Source of the DNA: Caldilineales bacterium
GTDB lineage: Bacteria > Chloroflexota > Anaerolineae > Caldilineales > Caldilineaceae
Direction of reading: 5' to 3'
DNA length: 54,854 nucleotides
Assembly: GCA_038318235.1 (NCBI GenBank)
Contig: JBBQBY010000001.1
Span: 1 to 54,854 of the forward strand
The translations under genes were made by a program, and so were the position numbers. Position 1 is the stretch's first letter. Each line of letters begins with the position of its first letter. Shown one piece after another: positions 4,360 to 33,290 of the stretch. Under the pieces are notes generated by a model. That model made no database searches. It saw nothing but the letters and a program-made list of their open reading frames with translations, and had not been told where the DNA came from.

Positions 4360-4384
4360 CGTACGCTCTCCCTCTAAATTGCTT

Positions 4385-12128: not shown

Positions 12129-12153
12129 CCTATTACCTATTAAGGAGGTTTCT

Positions 12154-14109: not shown

Positions 14110-14234
14110 GCCATAGAGCACCCTGCCAACGGCTTTCTCCCTTTCTAGAGGAGGGAGAAAGCCGTTGGGGAACAAAACAAGTAGCGTGACGCACACCCGA
14201 CGCGGAGCGCCGGGATCTACCAAAAAGGAAGAAT

Positions 14235-14269
14235 AAAAGGGCTATCCACAGTTGGTGGATAGCCCTTTT
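14235..14269. terminator. Bidirectional intrinsic terminator between the ABC exporter operon and the giant gene
   Basis: AAAA-GGGCTATCCAC-AGTTG-GTGGATAGCCC-TTTT, an 11-bp GC-rich stem flanked by A- and T-tracts. It lies between convergent stops at 14109 (+) and 14298 (-). Confidence 0.75.
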
Positions 14270-14297
14270 ATGATAAGCACTCAGCCCTATCCAAACC

Positions 14298-17200
14298 CTA
14301 CTTGCCTTCGGTTTTTTTCTTTTTATTGAGCCGGTTGCGGCGGAACATGCCGACCAGAAGCACCAAACCAATCGGCAGCGTGACGTTATTGCAGATGCCT
14401 TTGCTGGCGCCGGCAAGACTGGGCAACTTGGCCGTGGTCGTGGGCAATTGGCTGCCACTGATATTCATCGTCGCCGTGACTGCCGCGGTCGCGGTTGTTG
14501 CTGGTATGCTATCCGTTTGATTGTGGGTGGCGGTTGTATCTTGTGTGTTCGTTACTTTAGATGCGCTCTGAATCGTGCCTTGCCCTTGCACTTCGAGCGT
14601 ACCGCTCACGCCAGTTGTGGCGCCCAGTGTGCCAGTGATCAGTTTGTCATTCGTAACCTCGCCGTTGCCTTTGTAATCACCAGAGAGCAGGGGCGCGGCC
14701 CAATAATAGGGGGCGCTCGATGTTGTCTGCTTCAACATATCGAGTTGGGCGTTGCGCAGAGCTTCCGCTGTGGTCTGCTTTTCGCGCAGATACTTATAGA
14801 AGGCGCTATATAATTTTACCGTAGCCGCATCTTCCACCGGCCAAAGCGTGCTGATCACTGCCGGTGCACCGGCATATTGCACGGCCCGGTTCAACTGAAT
14901 TATTTCGCTGCCCGTGTTGCGCGAATTGGTATCCGCCGCGCTGCGCGACAAGACAACCAGGTTGGCCTGCGCCAGATTCAGATTGAAGAAATCATGCGTT
15001 TCCAGATTGCCATCATCTTGCGCGTCTGGCGCCAGTTTGATCGTGGTGAAAAGTGGTTGGAATGGCTTATAGGTCGCCGGTGACGCAATATGCAAGATGT
15101 CTACTTGCGGCGCTTTGTCATTCACCTGGAGTTTGGTGGCCTCTTTGCCAATGATCGCCGTCGCCCCATACAGCTTTGCCACCGCCTGCAATTCCTGCTT
15201 GGCAAAGTTGAGTGAATTATCCACATCGCCCACGGCCAACATCCGCCCCGTGTCGGCATTGCGTTTGCCAATCGCATAGCGCAACGCACTAGCGCTTGGC
15301 GCATAGCTGATCGCGAAATCCTCGACCAGATAACGTTTGTGGGCCGCATCATACAACCCCGCGAAGGGTAGATATTCCAAGATGCCTTGCGGCACAATCA
15401 CCAAATTGCTATGCCGGATATAGGGCCGGATCGGGACAATCAGACGACTATACAGATCGGCGTTCTCGGTGACTTGGGCGGTCGGATTGGCCATCTTTGT
15501 GCGCAGGGCGGTCACAAAACGGATCAACTCATTGCCCGTCACGTCGAGCGGCACCAGCACGTCACGATCTTGATCCACCACCCAGGCGATTGAGGTCTTG
15601 CGTAAGATAAAGAAGGTGACCAGCGTTGTATGGCTGTCCAATACGCTTTTCTTGAGTTGTTCCAAGCTGATCGCGTCAATGCCGATCAGCGAAGCATATT
15701 CTGGGTTGCTCTGTTTCAGTTGGGTCACTACTTGTTGATACTGCACGCTGGCAGTTTTGGTCGCTTCGCCCAATTGATTGAGCAACGCCTGATTTTGCTG
15801 GTCAGCCGGTTTCAGATGTTCCGCATCCAGGGCCCGTTGCGAACCAACCAGTTGTTGGCGCAACGTCTGCTCCTGCTTGATGATATCGGGTGTTGTAGCG
15901 GCGCGGAAATCGATCCACGGATTGGCGTTTTTGTCGAGCGAGGCGCGTGAGCGAGCTTGTTCCATATAATTGAAGGCATCATCATAGCGCTTCTGTTTCC
16001 AGAGCAAATTGACCAGGCGCTGATAGCTTTCCGTCTGCACAACATTGGTCTGGACAATCGCGACTGCTTGCTGATAGCTGCTGATGGCCTGCACCACGTC
16101 GCCTTTCGCTTCCTGCGCCATCCCCATTCCCGCCAGACTTTCGCTCTCTTCCGACTTATCACCAATCCGGCGTACGATTTCCAGCGCCTGGCGGAACGGT
16201 TCCAATGCCTTATCGAATTGGAGAATATTCAGGTAGACGGCCCCGATCTCATTCTGAGTGGCGCCCTCGGTGCTTTGATCGCCGATCTCCTTGGCAATTG
16301 TCAACGCTTGCTGGAATTGTTCCAGTGCTAAGTCATTTTGACCGGTGTCACGGTAGACTTTGCCCAAATTAACCAGAATGCGTTCTTTCACCGCTTTGTT
16401 ATCCATTTCATCGGTGATTTTTAACGCCTTTTGATAGGTGTCCTGGGCTTCCTGTGAGCGATCGAGATCGTTAAGGACAATGCCAACATTGTTAAGCGCC
16501 AAGGCTTCACCAATCTTGTCACCCAGTTTCTGCTGCGCCGCCAACGCCTGTTGATAGAAGGCCAACGCCGAATCATGTTGTTGGAACGCCCGGTAGGTGC
16601 GGCCCAACCCCGTATACGTTTCAGCAGCCAGGGCCAGATTGCCCATTTGCGTCACCAGGGCCGAAGCTTGTTGATAGGCAGCTAGGGCCTTTTCATAATC
16701 ACTCATGAGCAGATAGGTGGTACCCAATTGATTGAACGTCGCCACGACACCGGCATTATCTTTGGCGTCTTGATAAAGCTTGAGTGCCTGTTTGTAAGCC
16801 GGCAGCGCCTGATCAAAGCGTCCAATCTCACTATAAGCGGCGCCGATGCCGCTCAGGGTTTGTGCCGCCCCGGTCTGGTCGCCCGCGGCTTGCGAGATCT
16901 TGAGCGCTGCTTGATAGAATTTGAACACTTGATCATATTGACCCTGCACTCGGTAGAGCAAGCCCATATTATAGTTAGTCGTGGCGATTAGCATTTGATT
17001 GTTGCTGCTCTCGGCGCTGGCCAAGATCTTTTGATAGGCGGCAATCGCCTGGTCCAGCTGGCCCATGTCGCCGTACGCACCGCCGATGTTGGCTAAAGTC
17101 GCCTGTTCGAGCGGCTTATCGCCAAGTTCCTGCGCGATGGCGATCACTTGTTGATAGCTTTCCAGCGCTTTGGCGGGCTGGCCTGCTTTGCGATAAAGGC

Positions 17201-20200
17201 TACCCAGATTATTCTGCGCTTGGCCTTCCAACTTCCGATCCTTGGCCTTCTGCGCCAGCGCCAACACCTGTTCATAGCTTTCTCGCGCCTTATCCGCCTG
17301 CCCGGCGTTGCTATACAACTCACCCAAGTTACTCAATACTTCGGCTTGCAGGGTGGGATTGCCGCTATCCTGCACAATTTTCAACACTTGTTGATAGGTT
17401 TCCAGCGCCTTAGCCGTCTGCTTTAAGTCGCGATAGATGCGGGCGCTGTTGGTCAGGGCACTCATTTCCATCGCCCCGTCCTTGCTTTCGCGGGCGATTA
17501 CTAATGTCTTCTGATAGGCATCCAATGCTTGCTGCGGCTGGTTTAAGCGGCGATAGAGTTGCCCCAAATTGTCCAGCGCGGCGCCTTCCAACACCCGATC
17601 GGCCATTTGTTGCGCCATAATCAACGCCTGTTGGAAGAGTTCTCTGGCTTGGTCATATTGGCCTTGCGCCAACTCGATACCGCCCAGGCCATTGAGCGCT
17701 GTATAAATCAGCGCTTTGTCGCCGATACTCCGGGCGCCGTCTAGGGCTTTCTGATAGGCAGCTTGGGCTGGCCCGACCTGTTTTGCCGTCACATAGACTT
17801 TGCCCAGCTCGATATAGGCGGCGTTGGTCACACTCTGGTTATTCATCTGCCCACCAAGCGTCACCACCTGCTGGTACGTCGCCACTGCCTTATCCATCTG
17901 GCCCGCATCGCGATAGGTGCGTCCTATCCGGGTCAAGGCATCGGCTTGTAAGGCATTGTCTTGCAAGGTTTGGGCCAACTTGAGACCATGCTCATACGCT
18001 TCCAACGCCTGATCATAGCGGTTGGTATTTTGATAGAGCCGGCCTAGGTTAACGAACACTTCAAATTGTAAATTCTGGGCAGTGGGCGCGCTGGCCAATG
18101 CCTGGGCCAGCACTAACGCCTTTTGAAAGGCATCCTGGGCCTGATCTGGTTTGGCCAGGGTGGTGTAAAGCTTACCCAGTTCACTAAGCGTTTCCGCCTG
18201 CGATTGTTTGTTGTCGACCTTTTGGGCCACGGCGAGGGCCTTCTGATAAGCTTCTACGGCTTTCTCCGGTTGCCCTGAATCGCGATAGATGTTAGCCATA
18301 TTCGCCAACGTCTCGTCCTGCAAGCCGAGGTCACCCAGTTGTTGGGCGATCTGGAGGGCCTGATCAAACTTGCGCTGGGCATTGTAAATCTGGCTAATGT
18401 TGCCCAAGATATTGATTTCGGCTGGATGGTCTTTGGCCTTTTGGGCCAGCGCCAAAGCCGATTGATAGCTTGTCAACGCTTGATCATATTGCTGCGCACT
18501 CTGTTGGACCGCACCGATATTTTCGAGAACGGTGGTCTGCAATTTGATGTCGTTGAGTGCCTGGGCAATCGGCAAAGCGGCGGCAAAGGCATGCAACGCT
18601 TCAGTCGGCTTTTGCAAGCCAATCAGCGTCTTGCCCAATTCCACATAGACGGCGCCTTCAAGCGCTTGATTCTTACTCGTCACGGCAATCGTCAGCGCCG
18701 CACTATCGCTAATTTGCGCTTGGTCGAATTGCCCCAGTGCCCGATAGACGCGACCGATATTGGCTAACGCTTGACCTTCTGCCGCCTGATTGCCCGCCTC
18801 ACGCGCCAGGGTGAGGGCTTGTTGGTAGGGCTCCAGCGCCTTGTCGAACTGGCCGGCGTTGCGGAAGGTCTCCCCCATAGCGTTTAAGACCGCGTCTTCT
18901 AACTTAAAATCCCCCAACTGTTGCGCAATGGCAAGTGCCTGCTCAAACTGGCCCAAATTGCGATAGACATTGCCGACTTTGAGCGTGAGCGTATTGACGA
19001 GCTTGGTATTACCGCTGGTTTCGGCCAGCGTTACCCCTGCTTGATACGCCGCTAGCGCCTTATCGTTTTGCTGCAACGCCGTATACACCTCGCCGATGCT
19101 GTCGAAGATCATCGGCTGCCATTGCGGGTCAATTTGCGCATCACAGGCCGCGGTCTGGTTGGACAACCCCTGGACCAAGGTCAAAGCCTGCTGGTAGCTG
19201 GCGAGTGCTTCCGTGTACTTTTGCCCCGTTTTGTAGAACTCACCCAATCCATCGCGCACCATGGCTTCGAGCACGCGGTTGCTGCTCTGCTGGGCCAGGG
19301 TTAAGGCCGTTTGATAGGACTGCAAGGCGGGATCGTTCTGGCCGAGCGCTTGTTGGGCCGCGCCCAGGGCGATTAATGTTTTGCCTTCTAAGTCTGGCAG
19401 CGTTAATTGGCGGGCCAGTACAAGGGCTTTAGTAAAACTTTGCACCGCTTGATCCTGTTTGCCCAAACTGCTATAGGCTTTGCCTTGCTCAAGCAGGGTC
19501 TTGGCTTCCAGCATATGGTCGGTCAACGCCTGCGCCAGCGTGAGCGCTTCGGCAAACGTTGCCAACGACTGATCCAATTGGCCGGCATCGCGATAGACTT
19601 TGGCGATTTCGGCCACCAACTGTCCTTCCCGCGCGGGATTCTTGGCCTGTTGGGCAAGCGCGCGCGCTTGTTGATAGGCTTTCAAGGCGGCATCATATTC
19701 GCCCAAATCACGGTTGGCATGACCAATCGTGGTGAGGGCTTCACCCTGCAATTTGGGATCCTTCAAGGCTTGCGCAATCGCCAATGCCTGTTGGGCAGGT
19801 GCTAATACTTGGTCTATTTGACCCAGCGCCTGTCGTAGACGGCTCACGGCGGCCAGGGTTGCGCCTTCTAGCGCCCGTAATTTGAAAGCCTGCGCGATCC
19901 GGAGCGCCTCTTGGTAGGCACTGAGCGCATCATTACACTGGCCTAAATTTTCCTGCAAAGCACCCATGCTCGCCAACGTGTTGGCTTCACCCGCGTGATC
20001 AGATAGTCGCCGGGCCACCAAGCGTTCTTCGTCATAGGTCTGCAAGGCGTCCGCGGGTTTTTGCAACGCCACTTGTGTTTCGGCGATACTGTCCAGCGCG
20101 ATTTCTTGCAGCGCAAAATCGTCGAGCGTTTTGCCAATCGCCAGTGCATCCTGGTAGAACTTGAGCGCCTGGTCAAACTGGTTTTGGGCCCGATTGATAT

Positions 20201-23200
20201 CGCCAAGGTGCGCTAGCGCCTTGCTTTCCGCCGCGCGATTGCCAGATTCGCGGGCGAACGCCAACCCTTGATTAAATGCTTCCACAGCCTGATCGCTCAA
20301 GCCCTGGGCAAGATAGATGCGGCCAATGTTGTCGAGTGCTGTCGCCTTTAACTTAGCATCGTTCACTTGATCGCTCAGGGTAATCGCGCGCTGATAAGCG
20401 GTGAGGGCTTGGTCATACCGCTTCAACTCACGATAAGCGTTACCGGCGTTGACCAGGCTCTCGCTCTCCATCGCGGCATTTTTGGTCTGTTGCGCCAATT
20501 GCCGTGCTTGCTCGAATTGGGCCACCGCCTGGTCGAATTTCTGTGTATCGCGATAGAGTTTACCAATTTCCAGCAATGTATTCGCCTGCGCATTGTTATC
20601 TTTCAACTGCTGGAATAACGCCAGCGCTTTCTGATAGGCCGCCATACCTTTGTCGGTCTGGCCTTGTACCCGATAAAGTGCGCCCAACTCGTTCCAAGTC
20701 TGACCTTGCAAATTGAGATCCTTGATCGTCAGCGCAATCGTCAGGGTAGTTGTAAAGGCCGTTTGTGCCTTGTCAAACTGGCCAAGCGCGCGATAGATGC
20801 GGCCCAAATTGGCTTGCGTACGCGCTTCCTGGGTCTTATCACCCGCCTTCTGTGCGCTGGCGAGTGCCTGTTGATAGGGTTCCAGCGCTTGTTCAAACTG
20901 GCCGGCATCGCGTAGATTGCGTCCCAAATCCTGTAATACGGCGTCTTCCAGGTCAACATCATTCAATTTTTGGGCTACGGCCAGCGCCTTCTCATAGTCG
21001 CCTTGCATGCGATACACATCGCCGACGCGGGCCGTGAGTTGATTCACCAAACTCAGATTGTTGAGGCGCTGGGCGACGACAAGCGCCTGTTGATAGGCCG
21101 CTAACGCCTGGTCAGCTTGGGTCAACGCCTGATAGGTCTGGCCAATGTCATCGAGAATTTTTGCTGCCCAAGCTGGATCGGTGGGGGCTGCACAGGTGAG
21201 TGCTGGGCTGCCCAGCGTGCGCACAACAGTCAACGCCTGCTGGTAGGCGCCAAGCGCTTGCGGCTCCTGCTGGCTGTTATGATAGAAGTCGCCCAAGCCC
21301 TGTTGCGCCTGCGCAGCTAAGACCTGGTCGTTATTCTTTTGGGCCAACGCCACCGCGCTTTGGTAAAATTGTAATCCTTGTTCGTCTTCATTGAGCGCCT
21401 GTGCTGTGCGCCCTAATTCGAGCAGCAAACTACCTTCTAAATTAGCGATTGCTTTATCATGGATAATGGCCAGCGCTTGGTTATAGTTTTGCTGCGCCAA
21501 ATCAAATTGACCCAACATCCGGTAGACTTTGCCAATTTCGATCAACAGCTTGGCTTGTAACGGGTAATCGCCAGTTGCTCGCGCCAGCGCCACTGCTTGG
21601 TCGAAACCGGATAATGCTGCCTCCAACTGCCCGGCGTCGCGCGTTACTTTGGCTGCTTCGGCGAGAATCTGCCCTTCTAATGCTTGATCCTTTAACGTGC
21701 GCGCCAATGCGCGCGCCTGCTCAAATGCTTGGCGGGCCTGGTCCAATTGGCCCAAATCGCGATAGGCTTTGCCAATCTCGACTAAGGTAAGGCCTTCCAA
21801 ATGCGCATCTTTTAACGATTGGGCAATCGCTAAAGCGGCTTGGTTGGTCTTTAAGACCGTATCGGCATGACCCAGCGCGCGGTTCAGCCGGCTGATTTCG
21901 TTGAGGGTTGCTCCTTGTAAGGGGCGCAACTCAAACTCCTGGGCCAGCGCCAGCGCATTCTGATAGGTGGTGATCGCTTGGTCGCATTGGCCAAATGCTT
22001 CCTGCGCCGCGCCCATGCTGACCATGATTTCGCCTTCGGCTTTATGGTCAGCCAAGCTTTGTGCCAGCAAACGGGCGTCATCGTAGGCTTGGAGCGCTTT
22101 GTCATATTCGTTGATCGCTTGATGCGCTTCGGCGGAACTAATCAAGGCCAGCTGTTCCAATGGTTGATTGTTTAGTTCGCGCGCGATCGCGAGTGCATCG
22201 TCATAGAACTCTAGCGCACGGTCATTCTGATTTTGGTCATGATGGAGTTTGCCTATGCGTACCAATAGACGACCTTCGGCCTGTTGATCATTCGCCTTGC
22301 GGGCCAGTGCTAACACTGCTTTATAGGTCTCCAGCGCGCGGTCAACGCGCTGTAAGGCGAGGTAGACCCGACCCACATTCTCCAGCACGCGTGCTTGCAA
22401 GGCGATCCCAGCGGTGTCGCTTGGTTTCCCAATCACTTTCTGTGCGGCTTGGAAACTTTGCAGCGCCTGTTCATATTGCGTCAAGTCCCGATAATTGATG
22501 CCGATGGCCAATAACACTTCGCCTAACAAGGTCGCGTTATCCGGCCCTGTCGCCAACTTTTGCGCGGCTTGATATTGGGGCAACGCCTGGCTGAACTGAC
22601 CCATATCGCTGTAGACATGGCCGATTTCGAGCAAGACATTCGCCTGGCCTGTGCCATCTTTAATTTTTTGGAACTGGGCCAACGCCTGTTGATAGGCGCC
22701 CAAACTCTCTTCAAATTTCGCTTGGTCACGCTTCAGGCCGCCGATCTCTTCAAAGGTTTGCGCCAATCCATTGGTGTCGGTTAGCGTCTGGGCCAGCGTC
22801 AGCGCGGCTGTGAAGGCGCGATCGGCCTGGTCATAATTGGCTTGCGTCCGCTCAATGCGCCCGATATTAACCAGGGTTTGGCTTTGCAGGATGCGATCTC
22901 CGCTGGTCTGGGCTTTGGCGAGGATCTTTTGATAGGCGGCCAGCGCCTGTGCGTATTGACCGGCATCGCGCAAGCTGCGTGCTAGCGCGGCCTGCACCTC
23001 ATCTTCAAAGGCGACATCGCCCAGTTGTTGGGCAATGCTCAGCGCCTGATCAAATTTGCCGGTCAGGCGATAGATCTTGCCAATACTCTTTTGCAGGTTG
23101 GCCGCCCAGGTTGGATCAATCGCCGCTACGGCGCAGGTCGCCGACGTTGCCGCGGCCGGCGTAACAACGGCCCCTGGCGCCAGCGTCTGCACAATGCTCA

Positions 23201-26200: not shown

Positions 26201-27998
26201 TGGCGCTTCTGGCCGCATCTACGGCGCTTTGATAGGCGCTCACGGCCTGGGCACATTGCCCCAGATTAGCATAGAGGCCACCCAGGCTGACAAAGATGCG
26301 ATTCTGCATCGCCATATCGTTGCTGGTTTGGGCTGCGGTAAGTGCTTGCTGATAAAAGCTTTGCGCCTGATCCACGTTCTTTTGCGCCTGATAAACCGCC
26401 CCAATTTCGCCATAGATCAGCGCGGTGGTGGTCTGGTTGTTGCGCATCTGGGCGTACACCAGCGCTTGTTGGAAAGCCTGCAAGGCCCGATCATACTGGC
26501 CGGCGTCGCGGGCGGCGCGCCCCAGATCAACCAGCAATTGGCTCTGTGCCGTGGTATCACTTAGCACTTTGCTGGCCGTTAGGGCTTGCTCATAAGCGGC
26601 CAATGCTTGGTCATATTTTCCGGCGCTGCGGTAGATTTGCGCCAGATCGCTGCGCGCTTGGCTCTCCAGGGCCCCGTTCTTTACGGCTTGGGCGGCGGTC
26701 AAGGCTTTCTGATAAGCCTCGGTCGCGCGCTCCAACTGATTCATGTTGGCATAGGTTTTGCCAATGCCATCCCAGAGCAAGCTTTGCAGCGCCTGATCAC
26801 TGCTGACTTGGGCGTTGACCAACCCTTTTTGATAGAGTTGCAGCGCTTGCACATTCTGGCCCAAGGCGCGATAACTGCTGGCGAGATCGGCCAAGATATC
26901 AATCAAGAGCGCCGGATTATTTTCCGTTTCGGCTAAAGTGAGTGCTTGTTGAAAATAGGCCTGCGCCTTGATCATTTCGCCGACGTCGCGATAGGCGCGA
27001 CCTAGATTAGCCAGGGTTCGACTTTCCAACTGGTGATCGCCCAACAAAGGCAGCAGGGTTAAAGCCTTTTCGTACGCCTGCTTGGCTAAATCAATTTGAC
27101 CCAATGCGCGATAGGCATTGCCAATATTCACTAACGTTCGGGCGGCCAGCGCATTGTCGCCCAGTTCCGTGGCAATTTGCAGCGCGCCTTGATAGGTTTC
27201 GAGCTCTTGTTGATGTTGGCCCAAATTTTCATAGACATTGCCAACGTTGTCGAGCGCTTCGCCGGCTAACTTCTGATCGTTGGCGGCCTTGGCCAGTGCC
27301 AAGGCCTGTTGATAGGGGCCGACAGCCTTATCAAATTGTTTGGTTGTCTGATAAATTTGACCCATGTCGGCCAATATCTGGCTGGCTAGCGCGTTATTGT
27401 TGGCGCGCTGGGCAATCGTCAAGGCTGTTTGATAGGTCTGCAAGGCCTGGTCATATTGCTTTTGGGCCAGATAGACGCGGGCTAGCCCAAACTGGCTATC
27501 CCCGAGCAATTCTGTGCCACCCAATTTTTGCGCCAGGGTCAGAGCCGCTTGAAAGCTTTGTAAAGCCAAGTCAAATTGTGCCGTGGTTAAGTAGATTCTA
27601 CCCAGGCCAACGTGGGCCTTAACCATTCGTTCGCCATCGCCAATCCGTTGCGCCAGTGCCAAGCTTGCCTTGTAGGCTTCCAGCGCGCCGTTGATATCCC
27701 CTTGCGCCGTCTTGACCAGACCAATATAGCGCCAGGTAATACTCTCGCTTTTAGGATTGCCAATATAACGATAAAATTTTTGCGCCGTGACCAACTGGAT
27801 CAACGCATCTGGCCACTGCTGCGCCTCGATCAGCGTCAACGCGGCGACCAATGCGGCATCGCCCTGATTGTGCACCACGGGTGGGGCGGTGGCAGGGACG
27901 GCCAACACCGGCTGGGGCAACAGGGTCAAAACCACCAGCATGATCTGCAAACATGCTTGGGTTGCCCTGCGTAGCGATCTTTGGGATGCCTTTTTCAT
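14298..27998 (-). CDS. Giant secreted/anchored TPR-repeat protein with a C-terminal CHAT domain (4566 aa from ATG 27998; ORF open to 28067 = 4589 aa)
   Basis: Single uninterrupted ORF. MKKASQRSLRRATQACLQIMLVVLTLLPQPVLA-VP looks like a Sec signal, and GGAG lies 8 nt before ATG 27998. About 95 tandem 40-residue KLC-type TPR units follow (consensus A-x-x-YQQAL-x-IAQ-x-x-D-x-x-x-E-x-x-x-L-x-NIG-x-VYR-x-LGQYDQ). The CHAT-like region contains LVIVPQGILEYLPF, DILHIASPA and LVVLSRSAAD. The end has a Thr-rich linker, a TM helix and an RRNRLNKKKK tail. Confidence 0.9.
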   Translation of the reverse strand: MKKASQRSLRRATQACLQIMLVVLTLLPQPVLAVPATAPPVVHNQGDAALVAALTLIEAQQWPDALIQLVTAQKFYRYIGNPKSESITWRYIGLVKTAQGDINGALEAYKASLALAQRIGDGERMVKAHVGLGRIYLTTAQFDLALQSFQAALTLAQKLGGTELLGDSQFGLARVYLAQKQYDQALQTYQTALTIAQRANNNALASQILADMGQIYQTTKQFDKAVGPYQQALALAKAANDQKLAGEALDNVGNVYENLGQHQQELETYQGALQIATELGDNALAARTLVNIGNAYRALGQIDLAKQAYEKALTLLPLLGDHQLESRTLANLGRAYRDVGEMIKAQAYFQQALTLAETENNPALLIDILADLASSYRALGQNVQALQLYQKGLVNAQVSSDQALQSLLWDGIGKTYANMNQLERATEAYQKALTAAQAVKNGALESQARSDLAQIYRSAGKYDQALAAYEQALTASKVLSDTTAQSQLLVDLGRAARDAGQYDRALQAFQQALVYAQMRNNQTTTALIYGEIGAVYQAQKNVDQAQSFYQQALTAAQTSNDMAMQNRIFVSLGGLYANLGQCAQAVSAYQSAVDAARSANDNLALARALFGVGHMDDLVGQFDQSQLAFRESIQIAQTIKARELEGNGHIYLGDSLRSSGEYEKALDEYKAGLVIGQELNLILMQAEALAGEGGAYRESGQYDAALDPYQKALVLVQKTGDRVLEFEIYSGMGRAYRDLGKYDQALDADQKALAIAQAIDDLGLQAIAFSNMGEVQRLTKQYAQALQSYAESLRLARANIARLGLSAPTCSTIEDFTLEGKVLADTGMVYRDQEQFDQALATYQQALAVGEKLDNQELKSDTLFAIGAIYRQLRKFPEALAHYDKALTIARATKNLEVVGEILLDEGRVHRELDEHEKALVLYQEALTDAQQLKDNEGVSEILMDIGFSQRQLGQYEQSLATFQTALSNTRQFGQRGLEAQALDGLGGTYRAQGHNDQAVDPYEKALVIALELKNSEFATSLRGALAKVYRDLGQYDKALATADQLADQTSKGSIYEDIGDIYQDLGQSDKALALFTKALTVAQALKNTNMAATAQAKIGAAYQALGQSAAGVAAYQQALALFKQINDANSQADTLLALGNVYRALGQFDQALGQYQAAQTLVKTADNPRVASEILVNIGITYRQLTKYDQALESFQAALKLILTTNDDAATSNVYDNIGRVYLALQQDRRALDAYQQVLALAKKSGDHPLEGRTLVHIGDVYRQFGQPERSLRFYEDALTVAQALGSQALEQIALKGSALVHRALNENQAALDDFNDALQLTQDLGDHNAEGNLLISIGETQEVLGQCNNAATAYHQALAVARELGLHSLEGEALTDLSQLQRRLGQADQVLVSAQQALKLAQTIKDQTMESQALVEIGRAYYALGQNDQAIQSLTKARELAQQTRNHPLEIQIVAETAKAYQSAGQLDLALTAYQSAISLASTLGNQTILANMIVATGKFQAETGKFDLALQSYTQALTLVRTAPVPNLEGALLLAIGAVNQAAGQAAQSQQAYLAALALAQKQGDRKLEAQTQQGLGDFYRTANQFDQALSAYQQALSIVQTLAPGAVVTPAAATSATCAVAAIDPTWAANLQKSIGKIYRLTGKFDQALSIAQQLGDVAFEDEVQAALARSLRDAGQYAQALAAYQKILAKAQTSGDRILQSQTLVNIGRIERTQANYDQADRAFTAALTLAQTLTDTNGLAQTFEEIGGLKRDQAKFEESLGAYQQALAQFQKIKDGTGQANVLLEIGHVYSDMGQFSQALPQYQAAQKLATGPDNATLLGEVLLAIGINYRDLTQYEQALQSFQAAQKVIGKPSDTAGIALQARVLENVGRVYLALQRVDRALETYKAVLALARKANDQQAEGRLLVRIGKLHHDQNQNDRALEFYDDALAIARELNNQPLEQLALISSAEAHQAINEYDKALQAYDDARLLAQSLADHKAEGEIMVSMGAAQEAFGQCDQAITTYQNALALAQEFELRPLQGATLNEISRLNRALGHADTVLKTNQAALAIAQSLKDAHLEGLTLVEIGKAYRDLGQLDQARQAFEQARALARTLKDQALEGQILAEAAKVTRDAGQLEAALSGFDQAVALARATGDYPLQAKLLIEIGKVYRMLGQFDLAQQNYNQALAIIHDKAIANLEGSLLLELGRTAQALNEDEQGLQFYQSAVALAQKNNDQVLAAQAQQGLGDFYHNSQQEPQALGAYQQALTVVRTLGSPALTCAAPTDPAWAAKILDDIGQTYQALTQADQALAAYQQALVVAQRLNNLSLVNQLTARVGDVYRMQGDYEKALAVAQKLNDVDLEDAVLQDLGRNLRDAGQFEQALEPYQQALASAQKAGDKTQEARTQANLGRIYRALGQFDKAQTAFTTTLTIALTIKDLNLQGQTWNELGALYRVQGQTDKGMAAYQKALALFQQLKDNNAQANTLLEIGKLYRDTQKFDQAVAQFEQARQLAQQTKNAAMESESLVNAGNAYRELKRYDQALTAYQRAITLSDQVNDAKLKATALDNIGRIYLAQGLSDQAVEAFNQGLAFARESGNRAAESKALAHLGDINRAQNQFDQALKFYQDALAIGKTLDDFALQEIALDSIAETQVALQKPADALQTYDEERLVARRLSDHAGEANTLASMGALQENLGQCNDALSAYQEALRIAQAFKLRALEGATLAAVSRLRQALGQIDQVLAPAQQALAIAQALKDPKLQGEALTTIGHANRDLGEYDAALKAYQQARALAQQAKNPAREGQLVAEIAKVYRDAGQLDQSLATFAEALTLAQALTDHMLEAKTLLEQGKAYSSLGKQDQAVQSFTKALVLARQLTLPDLEGKTLIALGAAQQALGQNDPALQSYQTALTLAQQSSNRVLEAMVRDGLGEFYKTGQKYTEALASYQQALTLVQGLSNQTAACDAQIDPQWQPMIFDSIGEVYTALQQNDKALAAYQAGVTLAETSGNTKLVNTLTLKVGNVYRNLGQFEQALAIAQQLGDFKLEDAVLNAMGETFRNAGQFDKALEPYQQALTLAREAGNQAAEGQALANIGRVYRALGQFDQAQISDSAALTIAVTSKNQALEGAVYVELGKTLIGLQKPTEALHAFAAALPIAQALNDIKLQTTVLENIGAVQQSAQQYDQALTSYQSALALAQKAKDHPAEINILGNISQIYNAQRKFDQALQIAQQLGDLGLQDETLANMANIYRDSGQPEKAVEAYQKALAVAQKVDNKQSQAETLSELGKLYTTLAKPDQAQDAFQKALVLAQALASAPTAQNLQFEVFVNLGRLYQNTNRYDQALEAYEHGLKLAQTLQDNALQADALTRIGRTYRDAGQMDKAVATYQQVVTLGGQMNNQSVTNAAYIELGKVYVTAKQVGPAQAAYQKALDGARSIGDKALIYTALNGLGGIELAQGQYDQARELFQQALIMAQQMADRVLEGAALDNLGQLYRRLNQPQQALDAYQKTLVIARESKDGAMEMSALTNSARIYRDLKQTAKALETYQQVLKIVQDSGNPTLQAEVLSNLGELYSNAGQADKARESYEQVLALAQKAKDRKLEGQAQNNLGSLYRKAGQPAKALESYQQVIAIAQELGDKPLEQATLANIGGAYGDMGQLDQAIAAYQKILASAESSNNQMLIATTNYNMGLLYRVQGQYDQVFKFYQAALKISQAAGDQTGAAQTLSGIGAAYSEIGRFDQALPAYKQALKLYQDAKDNAGVVATFNQLGTTYLLMSDYEKALAAYQQASALVTQMGNLALAAETYTGLGRTYRAFQQHDSALAFYQQALAAQQKLGDKIGEALALNNVGIVLNDLDRSQEAQDTYQKALKITDEMDNKAVKERILVNLGKVYRDTGQNDLALEQFQQALTIAKEIGDQSTEGATQNEIGAVYLNILQFDKALEPFRQALEIVRRIGDKSEESESLAGMGMAQEAKGDVVQAISSYQQAVAIVQTNVVQTESYQRLVNLLWKQKRYDDAFNYMEQARSRASLDKNANPWIDFRAATTPDIIKQEQTLRQQLVGSQRALDAEHLKPADQQNQALLNQLGEATKTASVQYQQVVTQLKQSNPEYASLIGIDAISLEQLKKSVLDSHTTLVTFFILRKTSIAWVVDQDRDVLVPLDVTGNELIRFVTALRTKMANPTAQVTENADLYSRLIVPIRPYIRHSNLVIVPQGILEYLPFAGLYDAAHKRYLVEDFAISYAPSASALRYAIGKRNADTGRMLAVGDVDNSLNFAKQELQAVAKLYGATAIIGKEATKLQVNDKAPQVDILHIASPATYKPFQPLFTTIKLAPDAQDDGNLETHDFFNLNLAQANLVVLSRSAADTNSRNTGSEIIQLNRAVQYAGAPAVISTLWPVEDAATVKLYSAFYKYLREKQTTAEALRNAQLDMLKQTTSSAPYYWAAPLLSGDYKGNGEVTNDKLITGTLGATTGVSGTLEVQGQGTIQSASKVTNTQDTTATHNQTDSIPATTATAAVTATMNISGSQLPTTTAKLPSLAGASKGICNNVTLPIGLVLLVGMFRRNRLNKKKKTEGK

Positions 27999-28086
27999 GA
28001 TTTCTGCTCCAAACGTACGACGTCCGTTATAAACTTGATGATAGCGATCTTTATCGATGATAGTCAATGGCGGTAGGTGGAAAAGC

Positions 28087-28210
28087 GTAAGTGGTGATTG
28101 GTAAGTGGTGATTGGTAAGTGGTAAATAGTAAATGTGAAAGATCACTGCCTGGCAGCGAGATGAGCAAGGCTGGCCACTGCTGCCCACTTACCAATCGCC
28201 ACTTACCAAT
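28087..28210. repeat. Intercistronic long inverted repeat built from tandem 14-mers (GTAAGTGGTGATTG x2.5 / CCACTTACCAAT mirror)
   Basis: Left arm is tandem GTAAGTGGTGATTG at 28087-28128. Right arm is CCACTTACCAATCGCCACTTACCAAT at 28185-28210, ending at the first base of the synthase stop codon. It lies between the synthase gene and the giant gene. Confidence 0.7.
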
Positions 28211-31200
28211 TACTTCGTAACATGCACAAGTGAATCCAGCCAAGGTGCAACCCGATCAACCGTGCCGAAAATGTTAATCGGCCGGTTGGCGACCGTCGCC
28301 CATTCATCGGTAAACCGAATGTTCTCGATATTGCTCCGACTATTGGGGAAGTTATTGGCGAGGAATTGGTTCGACCCCGTCTTTAAGTACAGACCTACTT
28401 TATTGCCCGTTACTTCGTTATTGGCGATCTGGTTGCTGGCGGCCTCGGTCGTCAAATAAACGCCGCGCTCTCCATCGGCAATCTGATTGTGGAAGATGTA
28501 ATTTTCGGTAGAGCGAATGTAAACGCCGATCCTGTTCTTCTCCAGCGTATTCTTCCAGATCCAATTTTGGAACGATGCCTCGTAGATGTAGACGCCGTAT
28601 TGTGTGCTGCCGACGATTTGATTGTCGTGCACGATATTGGTGGCCGCGCCGCGCTGCATGAGGATGCCGCGTTTGTTATCGTTCAATTTGTTGTTATAGA
28701 TCAAATTGTTACTGGAGCGCCAGACAATAATGCCATCGGTATTATTGTCTAGGATGTTGTCATAGATCGAATTTTTGTCGCTTTCGCGGTCTAACATGAT
28801 GCCGTGTAAACGATTGTTGACCGAGCGGTTGCGGCGGATGATGTTATTGGTACAGCGGCGCGAGAAGATAATGCCGTGGTTGCCATTGTCGTGTACATAA
28901 TTATCTTCCATAATGAAGTTGTTCGAATCATCATGCGGGTCAAAGCCGTATTGCACGTTATTAAACACTTCATTGTTGCGAATAATCATATTGGTGGCGC
29001 CAAACGAGTAAAAACCGAAATAATTATCGTGGATTTTGTTGTTCTCCACGTGGCCTGTCACCAATTCTTTGCCAAACTTGGTGCTGGTTTCGATGCGCCA
29101 GGCCAGACCATAAACGCCACCGCCGCTTTCACGGGTGGCGGGCTGGCCCAAGAAGGAAATTTCCGAATTAACCACATCCATCCGGGCATTGTTGACGCGA
29201 ATATGGCTGCGACCATCCTTATAGTTACGGTCATAATCGTTTAACTGGGGATCCCAGGTGCTGACCTTGACGCCGCTGATGCCAAGACCACCGCCGTCAC
29301 CAAAAATTCGGATCGTGCCCGTGGTGTCACTCTTTAACTTGAGCCACGCCACCTGCGGTGCTTCTACCAAGAGCAATGTGTGGCGCTTTAGGATTAGGTT
29401 GGTTTTCAAAAGATAGACGCCGTTGCCTTGATCTTCCAACAGAGAACTATCACCCACGCGTGCATATAGGGTCGGCACATCTAACACGGCGCCCCAACCA
29501 TCCACCGTGATCGCGTTGATCTCCGGCTTATATTGCACTTTTAAGTTGCTCTCGCGGCCGACAGCGCTGTCCATCGCCTGGCGATAGGCTTCATAATCCT
29601 TAAAGGGTAACTTGATCTGAACTTTTTGCCCGATCTCCCATTTGCCGCTTGGCACGCTAATCGCACTCTGCTCAACGCCATACTTGCGGCTGATCAGTTG
29701 AGGGGTATCACCCACGCCAATTTCATAGTCGGTCAAGCCTTCGCCAACTTTGGTCGCGCCGGCATTGGTCGTCGGTGGATCGTTCACTTGAATAATTTTG
29801 CTGCTCGCCAGGGCAAAGTTATAGTTGGGCAACTGATCCTCGGCGTTTTTGACATGCGAATCCAGCGTGATGCCGGGCAGTGGCAATTGACGTTCGAAGA
29901 AGAGATTGATGCCAAGCACAATGAGAACGACGGTGACGGCTGTGGCCAGATAGGCCGGGATCATCCGAAATGGCTTTAGGGCGCGTAGCCGATTGCTCGA
30001 CCAGCGTGTGCCCCACCCTTGCAAGTTCATGGTAAAGAATGCATAAATGCGCAGGATGGCAAACCAATAGCTGAAGAGGATGTACCAGGGCAGGACAATA
30101 ATGCTTGACCGTCGGCGGCGTATATTGCCCCAAATTTTGATCAGGCGCGAGGTCAACCACCACAGAACAAGCACAATTGTAATAAAATAACGTTGGTAAT
30201 AGATCGACAAGAAAAAATAGGTCGGTGCAATCAACGTAGTCACTGGTTGAAACAACCGATCGATCAGGTGGAAAGCCAAGGCCGGCTCGTGCCAAACCCA
30301 GCCACTGAAAAGCGTTCTTAGGTCAGAACGCCAACTGTTGCGCGCCCAGCGAATACGTTGCTTGATAAAAAAGCCTAATTGCGGCGCACCTGGCGTATAT
30401 ACCCGTGCATTCTCTTGATAACGAACTTTCCACTTTTGGGCTTGCACTAGATTAGTGAGCGCTTTATCATCCCCGCTGATCACAGGTCGCCCCCAAAATG
30501 TCTCGTTTTCCAAATCGTCTAGCACTGGCAAGATGGCCGCGCGGCGATAGACCGCTGTACGCCCAGAAATACAGGTCACGGCATTGCCCAAGACCGCCAA
30601 GAAGCGGATCTCGTCCATATAACGAATATCCAGATAGACATCAAACAAACGCTGGGCAATGGTGTGCGGATTTAAAACGTTCTGGCGGGTAGTCACACCG
30701 CCCACATCTGGATCTTCAAACGGGGCCACCGCTTTGACGAGCACGTCTTCCGTCCAAATGGTGTCACTGTCGACCAAAAAGATGATTTCACCGCTGGACG
30801 ACAAAGCGCCATCGACAAGCGCCGGTCTTTTTCCGGGTTTTTTCGTGACGATCAATTTCGTCGCAGTGATGCCTTCAACGGCTGCCTCTTGCTCGAATTC
30901 TGTAAATACTTGAATACACTTCTCATCTGTGTAATCAATGACCGCGATGATCTCCGTTGGTCTGTTCGCGGCCCAAGAACGCAACGCCATCAAAAACACT
31001 TCGGGGTTTTCATTGTAGACCGGTGTGACAATACTGGTGGTTGTCATATACCCAGAGGGTTCTTGGGGGTGATAGCGCAAGCCGATCAATTTGCGCAGTA
31101 GCCATATGCCCCAGCGGTAAATGCCGATATAACCGACCGGAATTAAGAGGAAAATGAGGTTGCCTGTACTCTTTAACGCGCTAAAAAGCTGCAACAAGAC

Positions 31201-31242
31201 GTCATACAGACGTTTAAATTCCAACAGCAATTGATCGGGCAT
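28210..31242 (-). CDS. Fusion protein: processive family-2 glycosyltransferase (HAS/NodC/Alg8-like synthase) + multi-TM + LysM + right-handed beta-helix (polysaccharide C5-epimerase/lyase-like)
   Basis: GT2 motifs are VDSDT, ISGDDKALTN and KQRIRWARNSW (QxxRW). At least 5 TM helices follow. The LysM-like segment reads YEIGVGDTPQLISRKYGVEQSAISVPSGKWEIGQKVQIKLP. About 12 PbH1-type repeats (NNxIxxNxxxGI) follow, with QYGFDPHDDS encoded at about 28930-28950. An AGGTGGG RBS precedes the start. Confidence 0.85.
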   Translation of the reverse strand: MPDQLLLEFKRLYDVLLQLFSALKSTGNLIFLLIPVGYIGIYRWGIWLLRKLIGLRYHPQEPSGYMTTTSIVTPVYNENPEVFLMALRSWAANRPTEIIAVIDYTDEKCIQVFTEFEQEAAVEGITATKLIVTKKPGKRPALVDGALSSSGEIIFLVDSDTIWTEDVLVKAVAPFEDPDVGGVTTRQNVLNPHTIAQRLFDVYLDIRYMDEIRFLAVLGNAVTCISGRTAVYRRAAILPVLDDLENETFWGRPVISGDDKALTNLVQAQKWKVRYQENARVYTPGAPQLGFFIKQRIRWARNSWRSDLRTLFSGWVWHEPALAFHLIDRLFQPVTTLIAPTYFFLSIYYQRYFITIVLVLWWLTSRLIKIWGNIRRRRSSIIVLPWYILFSYWFAILRIYAFFTMNLQGWGTRWSSNRLRALKPFRMIPAYLATAVTVVLIVLGINLFFERQLPLPGITLDSHVKNAEDQLPNYNFALASSKIIQVNDPPTTNAGATKVGEGLTDYEIGVGDTPQLISRKYGVEQSAISVPSGKWEIGQKVQIKLPFKDYEAYRQAMDSAVGRESNLKVQYKPEINAITVDGWGAVLDVPTLYARVGDSSLLEDQGNGVYLLKTNLILKRHTLLLVEAPQVAWLKLKSDTTGTIRIFGDGGGLGISGVKVSTWDPQLNDYDRNYKDGRSHIRVNNARMDVVNSEISFLGQPATRESGGGVYGLAWRIETSTKFGKELVTGHVENNKIHDNYFGFYSFGATNMIIRNNEVFNNVQYGFDPHDDSNNFIMEDNYVHDNGNHGIIFSRRCTNNIIRRNRSVNNRLHGIMLDRESDKNSIYDNILDNNTDGIIVWRSSNNLIYNNKLNDNKRGILMQRGAATNIVHDNQIVGSTQYGVYIYEASFQNWIWKNTLEKNRIGVYIRSTENYIFHNQIADGERGVYLTTEAASNQIANNEVTGNKVGLYLKTGSNQFLANNFPNSRSNIENIRFTDEWATVANRPINIFGTVDRVAPWLDSLVHVTK

Positions 31243-31331
31243 AATCCCACCTGTGTTTACAGTAGCTTACAAACTTGAGGGTTTAAATAATCGAGTAGCT
31301 TGAAAAATTCAGAAAAGTGAAGTCGCAGTCA

Positions 31332-32222
31332 CTAATGTCTCTGTGCGTCCAGCATGACAAAATTGCTTGGAATCTGCTGGCGGTTGTGGTTGACCTGAAT
31401 TGTCGCGGCCAACATGAGCGTTTCCCAACCGCGATCCTGGCAAAAGGCAAAAAATCCTTCTGTATCCTTGGGCAGACAGGCGCCTGCATAGGGCGCGCCC
31501 CCACGTGTACCATACAATGGATTCCACATGCCCTCCGCACTGCGTGCCACGACAGCACTTACGACATTGCTATCGATCGCAAGCTTTTCGCAGATTTCAT
31601 GCACTTCATTGAAATAGCTAATCTTGAGTGCATTGTAAATATTGTTGACATATTTAATCATCTCCGCCTCAGCCGGTGTACACTGGATAATGAGCCCACC
31701 AAAAGGCGTATAAATATCATAAAGAATCGCATTCGTCAGGTGGTCTGTGGTCCCCAGCACTGTGATCCACGGGCGGTCAAAGTCTTGTTCACTGCTGCGC
31801 TGGCGCAGAAATTCTGGATTCACGGCGAGCCCAAAGTCAATGCCAGCCCGTTTGCCAGAAATTTTTTCTAAGACCGGGCGTAATTGCTGTTCTGTGGTGG
31901 TGGGCGGTACAGTGCAGCGCACCACCACTACCACAAATTTACTGGTTGCAGCTAAGCCCGCCCCAATGGTTGTCATCGCCGCCGTCAGTGGACCTAGTGA
32001 GGTTCGACCATCGATGGTTGGTGTTGGCACAGTTACCATCACAATGTCCCATGTTGGCCAATTTACCTGGGCTGGTTGCATAGCAAGCGCCCCTTGCTTT
32101 GAAAGGAGCGTAAGTTTCTCCTGTTCAATGTCAACGTAGCCAATTGTATAGCCTTTTTTGGCTAATCCTTTACCCGTTGCCTGGCCTACAACGCCGGCGC
32201 CCACAACTAATATATTCAACAC
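31332..32222 (-). CDS. UDP-glucose/GDP-mannose 6-dehydrogenase family protein lacking the C-terminal domain
   Basis: GTG start. Rossmann VVGAGVVGQATG, central-domain NPEFLRQ and the catalytic-Cys motif GACLPKD are present. The protein ends about 40 aa after the Cys (296 aa versus about 390-440 typical). Confidence 0.8.
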   Translation of the reverse strand: MLNILVVGAGVVGQATGKGLAKKGYTIGYVDIEQEKLTLLSKQGALAMQPAQVNWPTWDIVMVTVPTPTIDGRTSLGPLTAAMTTIGAGLAATSKFVVVVVRCTVPPTTTEQQLRPVLEKISGKRAGIDFGLAVNPEFLRQRSSEQDFDRPWITVLGTTDHLTNAILYDIYTPFGGLIIQCTPAEAEMIKYVNNIYNALKISYFNEVHEICEKLAIDSNVVSAVVARSAEGMWNPLYGTRGGAPYAGACLPKDTEGFFAFCQDRGWETLMLAATIQVNHNRQQIPSNFVMLDAQRH

Positions 32223-32314
32223 TAGATTGGTTCCCTTGCTTTGTTCTCTGTTTCTGTAGAGAAATGGGTCTCAAACAGATGCGTTGCCGCTTTATTTTAT
32301 ATTTTGCACAGGAT

Positions 32315-32342
32315 AGTTTATGCACCACGATACTTTGGTCAA
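32315..32342 (-). promoter_or_regulatory. Candidate promoter TTGACC-16-TAAACT for the dehydrogenase-synthase-TPR block
   Basis: Reverse complement of 32337-32342 is TTGACC and of 32315-32320 is TAAACT. It lies about 95 nt upstream of the GTG at 32222. Confidence 0.3.
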
Positions 32343-33262: not shown

Positions 33263-33290
33263 AGGCAATGGGCAGAAATTAAAGTGAAAT

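Follow-up and report, generated by a model that had tools for sequence, protein, structure and literature searches.

The stretch of DNA analysed here, 54,854 nt from a Caldilineales bacterium (contig JBBQBY010000001.1 of assembly GCA_038318235.1, in the following called the window), raises the question whether three neighbouring genes on its minus strand form a system for the production of an acidic surface polysaccharide. The three co-oriented open reading frames (ORFs), which fill positions 14298-32222, encode a short homologue of the nucleoside diphosphate (NDP)-sugar 6-dehydrogenases (31332-32222), a fusion of a processive family 2 glycosyltransferase (GT2) with an AlgG-type beta-helix (28210-31242), and a giant tetratricopeptide repeat (TPR) protein with a CHAT domain (longest ORF 14298-28067). 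A first-pass annotation had already described three co-oriented minus-strand genes at this place and had read them as a synthase-dependent exopolysaccharide system. This overall reading is supported by the data presented here, as the domains model as the proposed families and the genes are co-conserved, namely as two pairs. We consider it likely that the cluster represents a polyuronate synthase-modifier system. The fuller reading, in which an acidic (uronic-acid) surface polysaccharide is made in a synthase-dependent way and C5-epimerised in line, with a TPR scaffold particular to the lineage, is in our view probable by a smaller degree, and the chances that the giant protein is a working part of the polysaccharide system are about even.

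A membrane synthase fused to an AlgG-type beta-helix

The protein encoded by the second gene consists of two halves (mean pLDDT of the AlphaFold2 (AF2) model 85.6). A check of the fold families with AF2 and Foldseek assigned the N-terminal half to hyaluronan synthase (HAS) and the C-terminal half to AlgG, as the first-pass annotation had supposed for a GT2 synthase and a polymer-modifying beta-helix. HAS proteins are characterized by the motifs DxDT, GDDR and QxxRW and by a cytosolic gating loop (PMC11750622). Compared with this list, DxDT, GDD(R/K), QxxRW and W-x-T-R-W are all present in the synthase half of the fusion (DSDT at residues 158-161, GDDK at 257-260, QRIRW at 295-299 and WGTRW at 410-414), together with the motif CISGRTAVYRR at residues 224-234. 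In 32 homologues, which were aligned at a mean column identity of 46%, W410, T412, R413 and W414 are invariant, while the Gly of WGT is an Ile in most of them. Among the NCBIfam models NodC scores 104 bits and PgaC 55 bits; the structure retrieved for the N-terminal half is the HAS of a Chlorella virus (7sp7, E 1.4e-18, target-normalised TM-score (TMt) 0.60-0.64).

According to the hydropathy profile a single last transmembrane helix (residues 424-452) follows the gating loop. Because this loop is cytosolic and only one helix comes after it, the 550-residue C-terminal half is predicted to be located outside the membrane. This half matches the NosD/Beta_helix families in the profile search and resembles the AlgG structure 4nk6 both in sequence (E 1.5e-27) and in fold (TMt 0.76, root-mean-square deviation (rmsd) 3.6). 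The residues D317-P-H319-D320 of AlgG align to D768-P-H770-D771, which form part of the YGFDPHD motif noticed in the first-pass annotation and now located within the beta-helix (Table 1), and R345 of AlgG aligns to R795/R796 in the sequence HGIIFSRR at residues 789-796. D768 is invariant in the 32 homologues, H770 and D771 reach a conservation of 90% or more, and 70 out of 82 long homologues carry YG.DPH[DE]. Judged by its sequence, the beta-helix is a homologue of AlgG with the epimerase/lyase catalytic apparatus, not an AlgG orthologue.

The two halves are connected by a degenerate LysM-like module. In the window protein LysM (PF01476) reaches only 12.7 bits (E 0.12), which is below the cut-off of 20.9, and the AF2 model of this region contains short strands at residues 503-507 and 540-544 and a helix at residues 514-521. 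In the patescibacterial homologue P0059 the same family scores 44.9 bits at the equivalent place (residues 480-525). Of the synthase/LysM/C5-epimerase-like fusion that had been proposed earlier, the GT2 and the AlgG-type beta-helix are thus retained, but the LysM part is sub-threshold in the window protein.

A short two-domain dehydrogenase

The product of the first gene matches the NAD-binding Rossmann domain (PF03721, E 5.9e-23, with the GxGxxG motif at residues 8-13) and the central domain (PF00984, E 1.6e-19) of the NDP-sugar dehydrogenases. No match to the C-terminal nucleotide-sugar-binding domain PF03720 was obtained in this protein, whose chain stops about 15 amino acids (aa) past the central domain. 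The first-pass annotation had called it a truncated NDP-sugar dehydrogenase. It is indeed a dehydrogenase homologue, but truncated it is not, as the short form is native to a large conserved family. The top 120 database homologues have lengths of 296-417 aa and none of them contains PF03720. An alignment of 31 homologues revealed a mean column identity of 63% with a short variable tail at the end, and NPEFLR, K190, N194, C249 and D253 are invariant in all of them. The possibility of a pseudogene was rejected since the short form is conserved to this degree and every catalytic residue is kept. From these alignments the protein is to be regarded as a member of a dedicated short two-domain family and not as a decayed gene.

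Within the PDB the best sequence match is the GDP-mannose dehydrogenase AlgD from Pseudomonas (1mfz, E 1e-36, residues 78-302 of 436), with UDP-glucose dehydrogenase (UGDH) being nearly equal (E 7e-34). 1mfz is also the best Foldseek hit of the AF2 model (pLDDT 84.8) with a query-normalised TM-score (TMq) of 0.83 and an rmsd of 3.3 A, and here the UGDHs do not exceed 0.69.

A giant exported protein with a pseudo-CHAT domain

The start codon of the third gene is likely the ATG at position 27998, which we favour because a GGAG is located 8 nt upstream and because in close relatives the ORF starts with the corresponding Met. Only two hydrophobic segments are found by hydropathy, at the extreme N and C termini and both with basic flanks, and the body of the protein is therefore predicted to be extracytoplasmic. 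The orthologues open with equivalent signal-like sequences. The sampled ends of the protein are TPR_12/TPR_1 arrays, and a self-comparison indicates super-repeats with offsets of 646-686 and 1332-1339 aa and an identity of 40-50%, corresponding to a DNA block of about 2 kb per copy. These copies may explain the surplus of about 1300 aa over the orthologues, which comprise 3217-3313 aa.

The first-pass annotation described a secreted TPR-CHAT protein of 4.5 thousand residues. The TPR_12 repeats and the CHAT domain (Table 1) are confirmed and export is predicted, but the CHAT domain lacks both catalytic residues: the His position is occupied by Pro4307 (nt 15078-15080) and the Cys position by Ser4353 (nt 14940-14942). 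In an alignment of 155 CHAT domains the His and the Cys are each present in 141, whereas the window protein and all syntenic orthologues have neither of them. As the catalytic dyad is gone in all these proteins, an active protease was rejected, and by sequence the domain is a conserved pseudo-protease. TPR-CHAT proteins as such are very common (87,143 database matches at E <= 0.001). A word-indexed search for dead-CHAT giants brought up mainly short fragments and no full-length giant, and an exhaustive CHAT search yielded three dead-dyad representatives only, all of which are fragments. For the CHAT region no sequence match was obtained in the PDB.

At the C terminus the transmembrane helix is followed by RRNRLNKKKK. 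The tail motif G[IL]CN[GN][IV]T[LM]P[LI]GLVLL..FRR is conserved in the orthologues, as seen at the C termini encoded by loci L002, L003, L007 and L030 of the comparative set introduced below. The MYXO-CTERM model TIGR03382 matches this tail weakly (12.1 bits, E 0.23, cut-off 15.85). The Cys-transmembrane-Arg tail may be an undescribed sorting signal of the Chloroflexota. Similar tails were also observed in related TPR-CHAT proteins with intact dyads (P0393 and P0398).

Conservation of the gene neighbourhood

The comparative set comprised 110 loci from genome and metagenome collections (numbered with the prefix L), of which 89 non-redundant loci were used for the clustering of neighbouring genes. 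A fusion with 95% identity is encoded on a contig of a Chloroflexota metagenome-assembled genome (MAG) from Lake Pavin, and the next relatives are MAGs of Caldilineaceae, from which the host can be placed close to the Caldilineaceae within the Chloroflexota. As distant fused loci we defined non-redundant loci with a GT2 domain less than 55% identical to that of the window and with both flanks present (n=43). In 42 of these 43 a short dehydrogenase is encoded directly upstream or downstream of the fusion. The distant fused loci probably belong mostly to Patescibacteria; those with a name are Microgenomates, Andersenbacteria and Saccharibacteria. All complete adjacent dehydrogenases (53 of 53) are proteins of 300-375 aa without PF03720.

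A second conserved pair is formed by the fusion and the dead-CHAT giant, which are adjacent and on the same strand in 13 non-redundant Caldilineaceae-type loci (L002, L003, L004, L005, L006, L007, L010, L028, L030, L108, L109, L110 and L027). Across these loci the identity of the fusion is 57-82% and that of the CHAT domain 43-50%, and in several of them the ORFs abut or the called genes are 27-80 nt apart. Dehydrogenase, fusion and giant occur in the same order in L110 and L027 (fusion about 80% identical), which are probably one organism represented on two contigs. The three genes are hence co-conserved in relatives as pairs and, in L110 and L027, as a trio, but not as an invariant trio: instead of one invariant operon, there are two conserved pairs, dehydrogenase-fusion and fusion-giant, which overlap to give the trio. 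The best explanation is that the dehydrogenase-fusion pair is an ancient core to which the giant is a lineage-specific addition.

An unfused version of the module is present in a Kouleothrix MAG (L107, positions 10001-19087), where separate genes encode a dehydrogenase (323 aa), a GT2 (411 aa), a beta-helix protein (1298 aa) and a TPR protein (851 aa). The beta-helix protein is secreted and carries two YGFDPHD motifs; the TPR protein, which ends the operon, is membrane-anchored and without CHAT. Further unfused modules were found in L011 and L013, and in all three loci the secreted beta-helix proteins (1298-1364 aa) have two YG[FI]DPHD motifs each. Since split and fused forms both exist, it can be argued that the synthase and the beta-helix act on the same polymer. 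Likewise, the presence of an unrelated TPR protein at the corresponding place of the Kouleothrix operon argues for a TPR partner that is functional and not accidental.

Two further loci deserve mention. In another Chloroflexota MAG (L021, positions 13263-18085) the dehydrogenase-fusion pair is followed not by a TPR giant, but by two other proteins, one of 801 aa with an OpuAC domain and one of 796 aa with a BcsB-type carbohydrate-binding domain (PF03170). The isolate Arthrobacter cheniae (L018) has a GT2-beta-helix gene of 36% identity about 0.8 kb away from a full-length three-domain UGDH gene. This locus was not counted as the same module because the DPHD motif is missing; it follows a similar logic and probably represents a different family.

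Identity of the polymer and alternative explanations

The genes next to the module give some indication of its product. Genes of the polysaccharide lyase (PL) family PL7 (Alginate_lyase2, E 4e-44) lie beside it in 18 of the 89 non-redundant loci, PL6/chondroitinase-B-like beta-helix genes in 19 and BNR propellers in 18, the latter in both clades, Caldilineaceae loci included. In 24 loci a small fn3 protein is encoded directly upstream, and sortases occur in seven. Examples of such partner genes in Patescibacteria-type relatives are L088:12771-13661, L046:14033-15244, L080:8179-9504 and L047:5694-6509. In L026 a ManC-like GDP-mannose pyrophosphorylase is located beside the module. A polyuronate as product is indicated by three features together, namely lyases in the neighbourhood, a dehydrogenase similar to AlgD and a motif of the AlgG/AlgE type. 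A mannuronan/alginate-like polymer is the leading candidate suggested by these comparisons, although the pointers from sequence to mannuronate or glucuronate conflict.

Several observations weigh against the proposed system, either in parts or as a whole. With respect to the precursor, the dehydrogenase is without the nucleotide-binding domain that is present in every characterised relative, which makes its substrate uncertain. With respect to a pure mannuronan, the synthase resembles the NodC, PgaC and HAS enzymes that polymerise N-acetylglucosamine (GlcNAc), LysM modules bind GlcNAc glycans, and no family named Alg8 was among the NCBIfam matches of the GT2 even at E <= 10, the Alg8 content of that library being unconfirmed. 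With respect to epimerisation, beta-helices of the AlgG type may be lyases as well as epimerases, and the AlgG equivalog model NF038177 gives the domain 127.5 bits compared to a cut-off of 700 bits. With respect to the gene neighbourhood, none of the accessory genes (fn3, PL7, PL6-like, BNR) was found in the window; L108, whose fusion is 82% identical, has fusion and giant and no adjacent dehydrogenase; in a Caldilineaceae clade of about 60% identity the dehydrogenase is likewise not adjacent to the fusion; and no giant is present in the collected loci of Ardenticatenaceae, of another Chloroflexota lineage or in any of the Patescibacteria type.

Some of these points are taken up by an alternative in which the polymer is a hyaluronan-like heteropolymer of GlcNAc and glucuronate, UDP-glucuronate is the product of the dehydrogenase and the glucuronate units of the polymer are turned into iduronate by the beta-helix. 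The synthase is indeed nearest to HAS by structure and to NodC/PgaC by sequence, it retains the Cys of the HAS acceptor site in its C-I-S-G motif as well as GDD(K/R), LysM is significant in Patescibacteria homologues, several homologues are named hyaluronan synthase by JGI, and the sequence score of UGDH comes near to that of AlgD. We nevertheless regard the heteropolymer as unlikely, since the recurrent neighbouring lyases belong to PL7, a family of alginate and glucuronan lyases, and not to hyaluronan-lyase families, AlgD is clearly the best structural match of the dehydrogenase, and L026 contains the ManC-like gene. Furthermore, we know of no AlgG-type enzyme that acts on glucuronate. Another possibility concerns the beta-helix alone, which as a lyase or hydrolase would trim or release the nascent chain and leave an unepimerised polyuronate. 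Within the beta-helix fold, epimerases and lyases have the motif and the initial step of catalysis in common, AlgE7 is bifunctional, the AlgG equivalog score is far under the cut-off, and sequence alone cannot separate the two activities. However, the nearest sequence and structure matches of the domain are all epimerases (AlgG, AlgE4, AlgE6 and 8ja4), and the dedicated PL7 and PL6-like lyase genes of the relatives would make a second lyase redundant, so that this explanation appears quite improbable to us.

The giant could also be unrelated to the polysaccharide and represent an independent surface protein, for example a scaffold or adhesin, that shares a transcription unit or merely the neighbourhood with the fusion in one lineage. 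Most fusion-bearing lineages do without the giant, TPR-CHAT proteins are extremely common, with many intact-dyad relatives having Cys-transmembrane-Arg tails, and a link of CHAT to polysaccharides was not found in the searchable literature. Against this stand the same-strand adjacency in 13 non-redundant loci with close or abutting genes in spite of the divergence, the loss of the dyad specifically in the syntenic subfamily, and the TPR protein of Kouleothrix; on balance we consider an independent giant rather unlikely. Finally, the short dehydrogenase might not be an NDP-sugar dehydrogenase at all, but an enzyme with another substrate or an NAD-sensing, regulatory subunit of the synthase. This would agree with the absence of PF03720 from the 53 adjacent copies and the top 120 homologues and with a TIGR03026 score of 181.6, just below the cut-off of 189.8. 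It is made distinctly improbable by the invariance of all catalytic residues of the four-electron oxidation and by a predicted fold that superposes on AlgD. In addition, the strict pairing with a synthase bearing a uronate-specific modifying domain fits a role in precursor supply, and even the distant GT2-beta-helix gene of A. cheniae, which lacks DPHD, has a full-length UGDH gene in its vicinity.

Comparison with known systems

Compared with the alginate system of Pseudomonas and Azotobacter (AlgD, Alg8/Alg44, AlgK, AlgE, AlgG, AlgL), the cluster shares an AlgD-type dehydrogenase, a GT2 membrane synthase, a beta-helix with AlgG fold and DPHD, and a TPR protein in the same cluster, and its relatives carry a gene of an alginate-lyase family in the operon. 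In contrast to alginate, the dehydrogenase is without the nucleotide-binding domain, the synthase is HAS/NodC-like, and the epimerase-like domain is fused to the synthase, whereas AlgG is a free periplasmic protein. The lyase of the relatives belongs to PL7 and AlgL to PL5, and the TPR protein has 4566 aa and a pseudo-CHAT domain, while AlgK is a small lipoprotein. No PilZ/Alg44-like gene, no gene for an AlgE-type porin and no AlgX/AlgIJF were identified in the window. Chloroflexota are usually regarded as lacking an outer membrane and differ in this from the hosts of the alginate system. The Azotobacter enzymes AlgE1-7 possess the identical YG(F/I)DPH(D/E) motif, and some of them have tandem double modules as in Kouleothrix, L011 and L013; unlike in these enzymes, no RTX-type R-modules were detected and the module of the window is tethered to the membrane by the synthase.

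The class I HAS and the streptococcal has operon (HasA and the UGDH HasB) also combine a dehydrogenase with a processive synthase that polymerises and translocates the chain. The same dehydrogenase-synthase logic is known from Cps3D/Cps3S of the pneumococcal type 3 capsule. The cluster synthase has the DxDT, GDD(R/K), QxxRW and W-x-T-R motifs and the fold of the Chlorella-virus HAS, but is only about 18% identical; HAS has two helices after the gating loop and the cluster synthase one, which would put the 550-aa extension outside. The fused polymer-modifying domain and the short dehydrogenase in place of a full-length UGDH are likewise different from the has operon.

Like AlgK, PelB, PgaA and BcsC, the giant is a TPR protein predicted to lie outside the cytoplasm, and its gene comes immediately after the coding region for synthase and modifying enzyme. 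It differs from them in having no fused or partner beta-barrel porin, in its size (about 5-10 times larger), in its TPR_12-type repeats, its pseudo-CHAT domain and its C-terminal helix anchor, and its homology to these proteins is no more than a generic TPR similarity. TPR-CHAT proteases such as Csx29 of type III-E CRISPR and HetF show the same order of TPR and CHAT, for which the giant has a clear Pfam match. In contrast to them the subfamily of the giant is without both catalytic residues, and the protein is exported and membrane-anchored instead of cytoplasmic. In summary, the cluster follows the alginate and the hyaluronan system in its way of working, but belongs to neither of them.

The first-pass annotation had called the architecture unrecognised. 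No description of the fusion, the short dehydrogenase or a link between TPR-CHAT proteins and polysaccharides was found in the searchable literature, outside of which most subscription journals lie. On the other hand, the fused form is widespread in databases with 551 homologues, whose names are generic (glycosyltransferase, NosD-domain protein, parallel beta-helix protein and, several times in JGI, hyaluronan synthase). The unusual features of the cluster are the obligate short dehydrogenase, the in-line epimerase fusion and the giant pseudo-caspase TPR partner. To our knowledge, alginate synthesis in bacteria is established experimentally for Pseudomonas and Azotobacter only, and for bacteria without a classical outer membrane we know of no described synthase-dependent system that includes its own epimerase acting on the polymer.

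Proposed mechanism and significance

According to the model, the dehydrogenase would supply an NDP-uronic acid, with GDP-mannuronate as the leading candidate and UDP-glucuronate as the second. The synthase would polymerise the NDP-uronate and push the chain through its own channel, so that the emerging chain would meet the tethered beta-helix, where C5 of the uronate would be deprotonated. This could epimerise mannuronate to guluronate, or glucuronate to iduronate, or, less likely, lead to cleavage. The LysM-like module may keep the enzyme in place, either at the wall or on the glycan. The giant of the Caldilineaceae lineage would act as a non-catalytic, C-terminally anchored extracellular scaffold that binds the polymer or the beta-helix domain, a role suggested by the analogy with the TPR domains of AlgK, PelB, PgaA and BcsC from diderm bacteria.

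A more far-reaching picture, which we put forward tentatively and consider doubtful as a whole, is that an alginate-like polyuronate with C5-epimerised residues is produced in Patescibacteria (candidate phyla radiation, CPR) and Chloroflexota by a minimal machinery unlike the alg layout of Pseudomonas. It would consist of a dedicated two-domain dehydrogenase that functions in spite of the missing nucleotide-binding domain, possibly docked on the synthase, a self-epimerising HAS-type enzyme and, in Caldilineaceae, a pseudo-caspase scaffold of about 0.5 MDa. If true, an epimerising polyuronate system would for the first time be known from organisms other than Proteobacteria and brown algae, and it could be one source of the alginate-like polymers reported from sludge and sediments. 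Caldilineaceae and Kouleothrix are abundant filamentous bacteria of activated sludge, and for this reason the polymer could matter for the structure of flocs and granules.

The occurrence of the two-gene core in hundreds of uncultured Patescibacteria and Chloroflexota makes the surface-polymer biology of these organisms testable. An NDP-sugar dehydrogenase family without nucleotide-binding domain, but strictly paired with a synthase, poses a puzzle for enzymology, and in the giant a caspase-like CHAT domain would have become a module without catalytic function within an extracellular TPR protein. A natural synthase-epimerase fusion would be usable for the engineering of tailored polyuronates.

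Boundaries of the cluster and upstream spacer

The coordinates of all features are compiled in Table 1. The gap between the first two genes agrees with the 89 nt given in the first-pass annotation, and its 140-210 nt for the second gap correspond to 142 nt from TTG 28067 and 211 nt from ATG 27998. The clean terminator expected at 14235-14269 was found as a hairpin with adjoining T-run (Table 1); it separates the convergent genes of the giant and of an ABC exporter and closes the cluster.

Table 1. Positions of the features of the three-gene cluster and its borders in the window.
Feature	Positions	Strand	Remarks
AT-rich non-coding spacer upstream of cluster	32223..33676	-	1.45 kb, GC 0.38; candidate promoter 32315-32342 at chance level
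Short NDP-sugar 6-dehydrogenase homologue	31332..32222	-	296 aa, GTG start; NAD-binding and central catalytic domains only
Dehydrogenase-fusion gap	31243..31331	-	89 nt by ORF coordinates; no terminator-like site
Fusion of processive GT2 membrane synthase, LysM-like linker and AlgG-type beta-helix	28210..31242	-	1010 aa
Cytoplasmic GT-A catalytic domain, aa 62-310	30313..31059	-	Glyco_tranf_2_3, E 9e-25
Membrane region, aa 320-452	29887..30285	-	hydropathy and AF2 helices
Gating-loop motif WGTRW, aa 410-414	30001..30015	-	within membrane region
Degenerate LysM-like module, aa 503-545	29608..29736	-	LysM 12.7 bits
Predicted extracytoplasmic AlgG-type right-handed beta-helix, aa 577-980	28303..29514	-	NF038177, E 6e-37
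YGFDPHD motif, aa 765-771	28930..28950	-	within beta-helix
Fusion-giant gap	27999..28209	-	211 nt; close relatives 27-80 nt; no terminator-like site
Exported TPR protein with pseudo-CHAT domain	14298..27998	-	4566 aa; mechanical ORF reaches TTG 28067
N-terminal signal peptide or anchor	27885..27998	-	MKKASQRSLRR, hydrophobic core, VLA/VP
Three diverged tandem copies of TPR super-repeat of ~650-685 aa, aa ~1000-3300	18099..25001	-	self-comparison
CHAT (caspase-like) domain	14676..15458	-	PF12770, E 6.5e-56
C-terminal anchor GICNNVTLPIGLVLLVGMFRRNRLNKKKK	14301..14399	-	Cys, transmembrane helix, basic tail; Thr-rich linker before
Strong hairpin terminator	14233..14271		17-bp stem, 7 GC pairs, then T-run

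A promoter TTGACC-16-TAAACT had been proposed at 32315-32342. The site exists and matches in 9 of 12 positions, but this is chance level: 12 sigma-70-like sites were observed in the upstream region compared to 9.4 +/- 3.7 in shuffles, and the site was therefore rejected as evidence for a promoter. As to the 1.3-kb AT-rich leader assigned to it, an AT-rich spacer is indeed present; as the site is only about 95 nt away from the start codon, however, most of the 1.45 kb lies upstream of it and is not its leader. The regulation of the cluster nevertheless probably resides in this spacer. Its block 32611-33009 is 72% identical to the relative L001, and L108, the locus without adjacent dehydrogenase, has a comparable spacer (1368 nt, 37% GC). 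No Rfam family was found in the spacer with gathering and E-value thresholds, the hairpins matching miRNA models only. A long hairpin was observed at 32510-32600. A near-perfect long inverted repeat at 33423-33495, for which Rfam likewise returned miRNA hairpin models only, lies about 180 nt past the stop codon of the aldehyde-dehydrogenase gene; it probably is the terminator of that gene and sets it apart from the cluster.

Other genes of the window

The genes of both flanks are of the usual housekeeping type. Those upstream encode an aldehyde dehydrogenase, a solute-binding protein, Tgt, a GAF histidine kinase and RecA, and two ABC exporters are encoded on the convergent downstream flank. 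Beyond the three-gene cluster no further polysaccharide genes were found in the window, nor was a CRISPR or other defence context.

Two regions of the window are mentioned for completeness. At 4385-5530 (minus strand) an ORF of 381 aa belongs to the FtsK/SpoIIIE family and is without the usual long N-terminal membrane part. It lies in a locally GC-rich kilobase (59%) and is overlapped on the opposite strand by an ORF of 191 aa (4005-4580, plus strand). A protein of 529 aa encoded at 48806-50395 has a DnaJ domain at its N terminus and in addition PD40/WD40-like beta-propeller repeats, and a tRNA gene (50813-50885, Rfam 66.6 bits) is located near to it.

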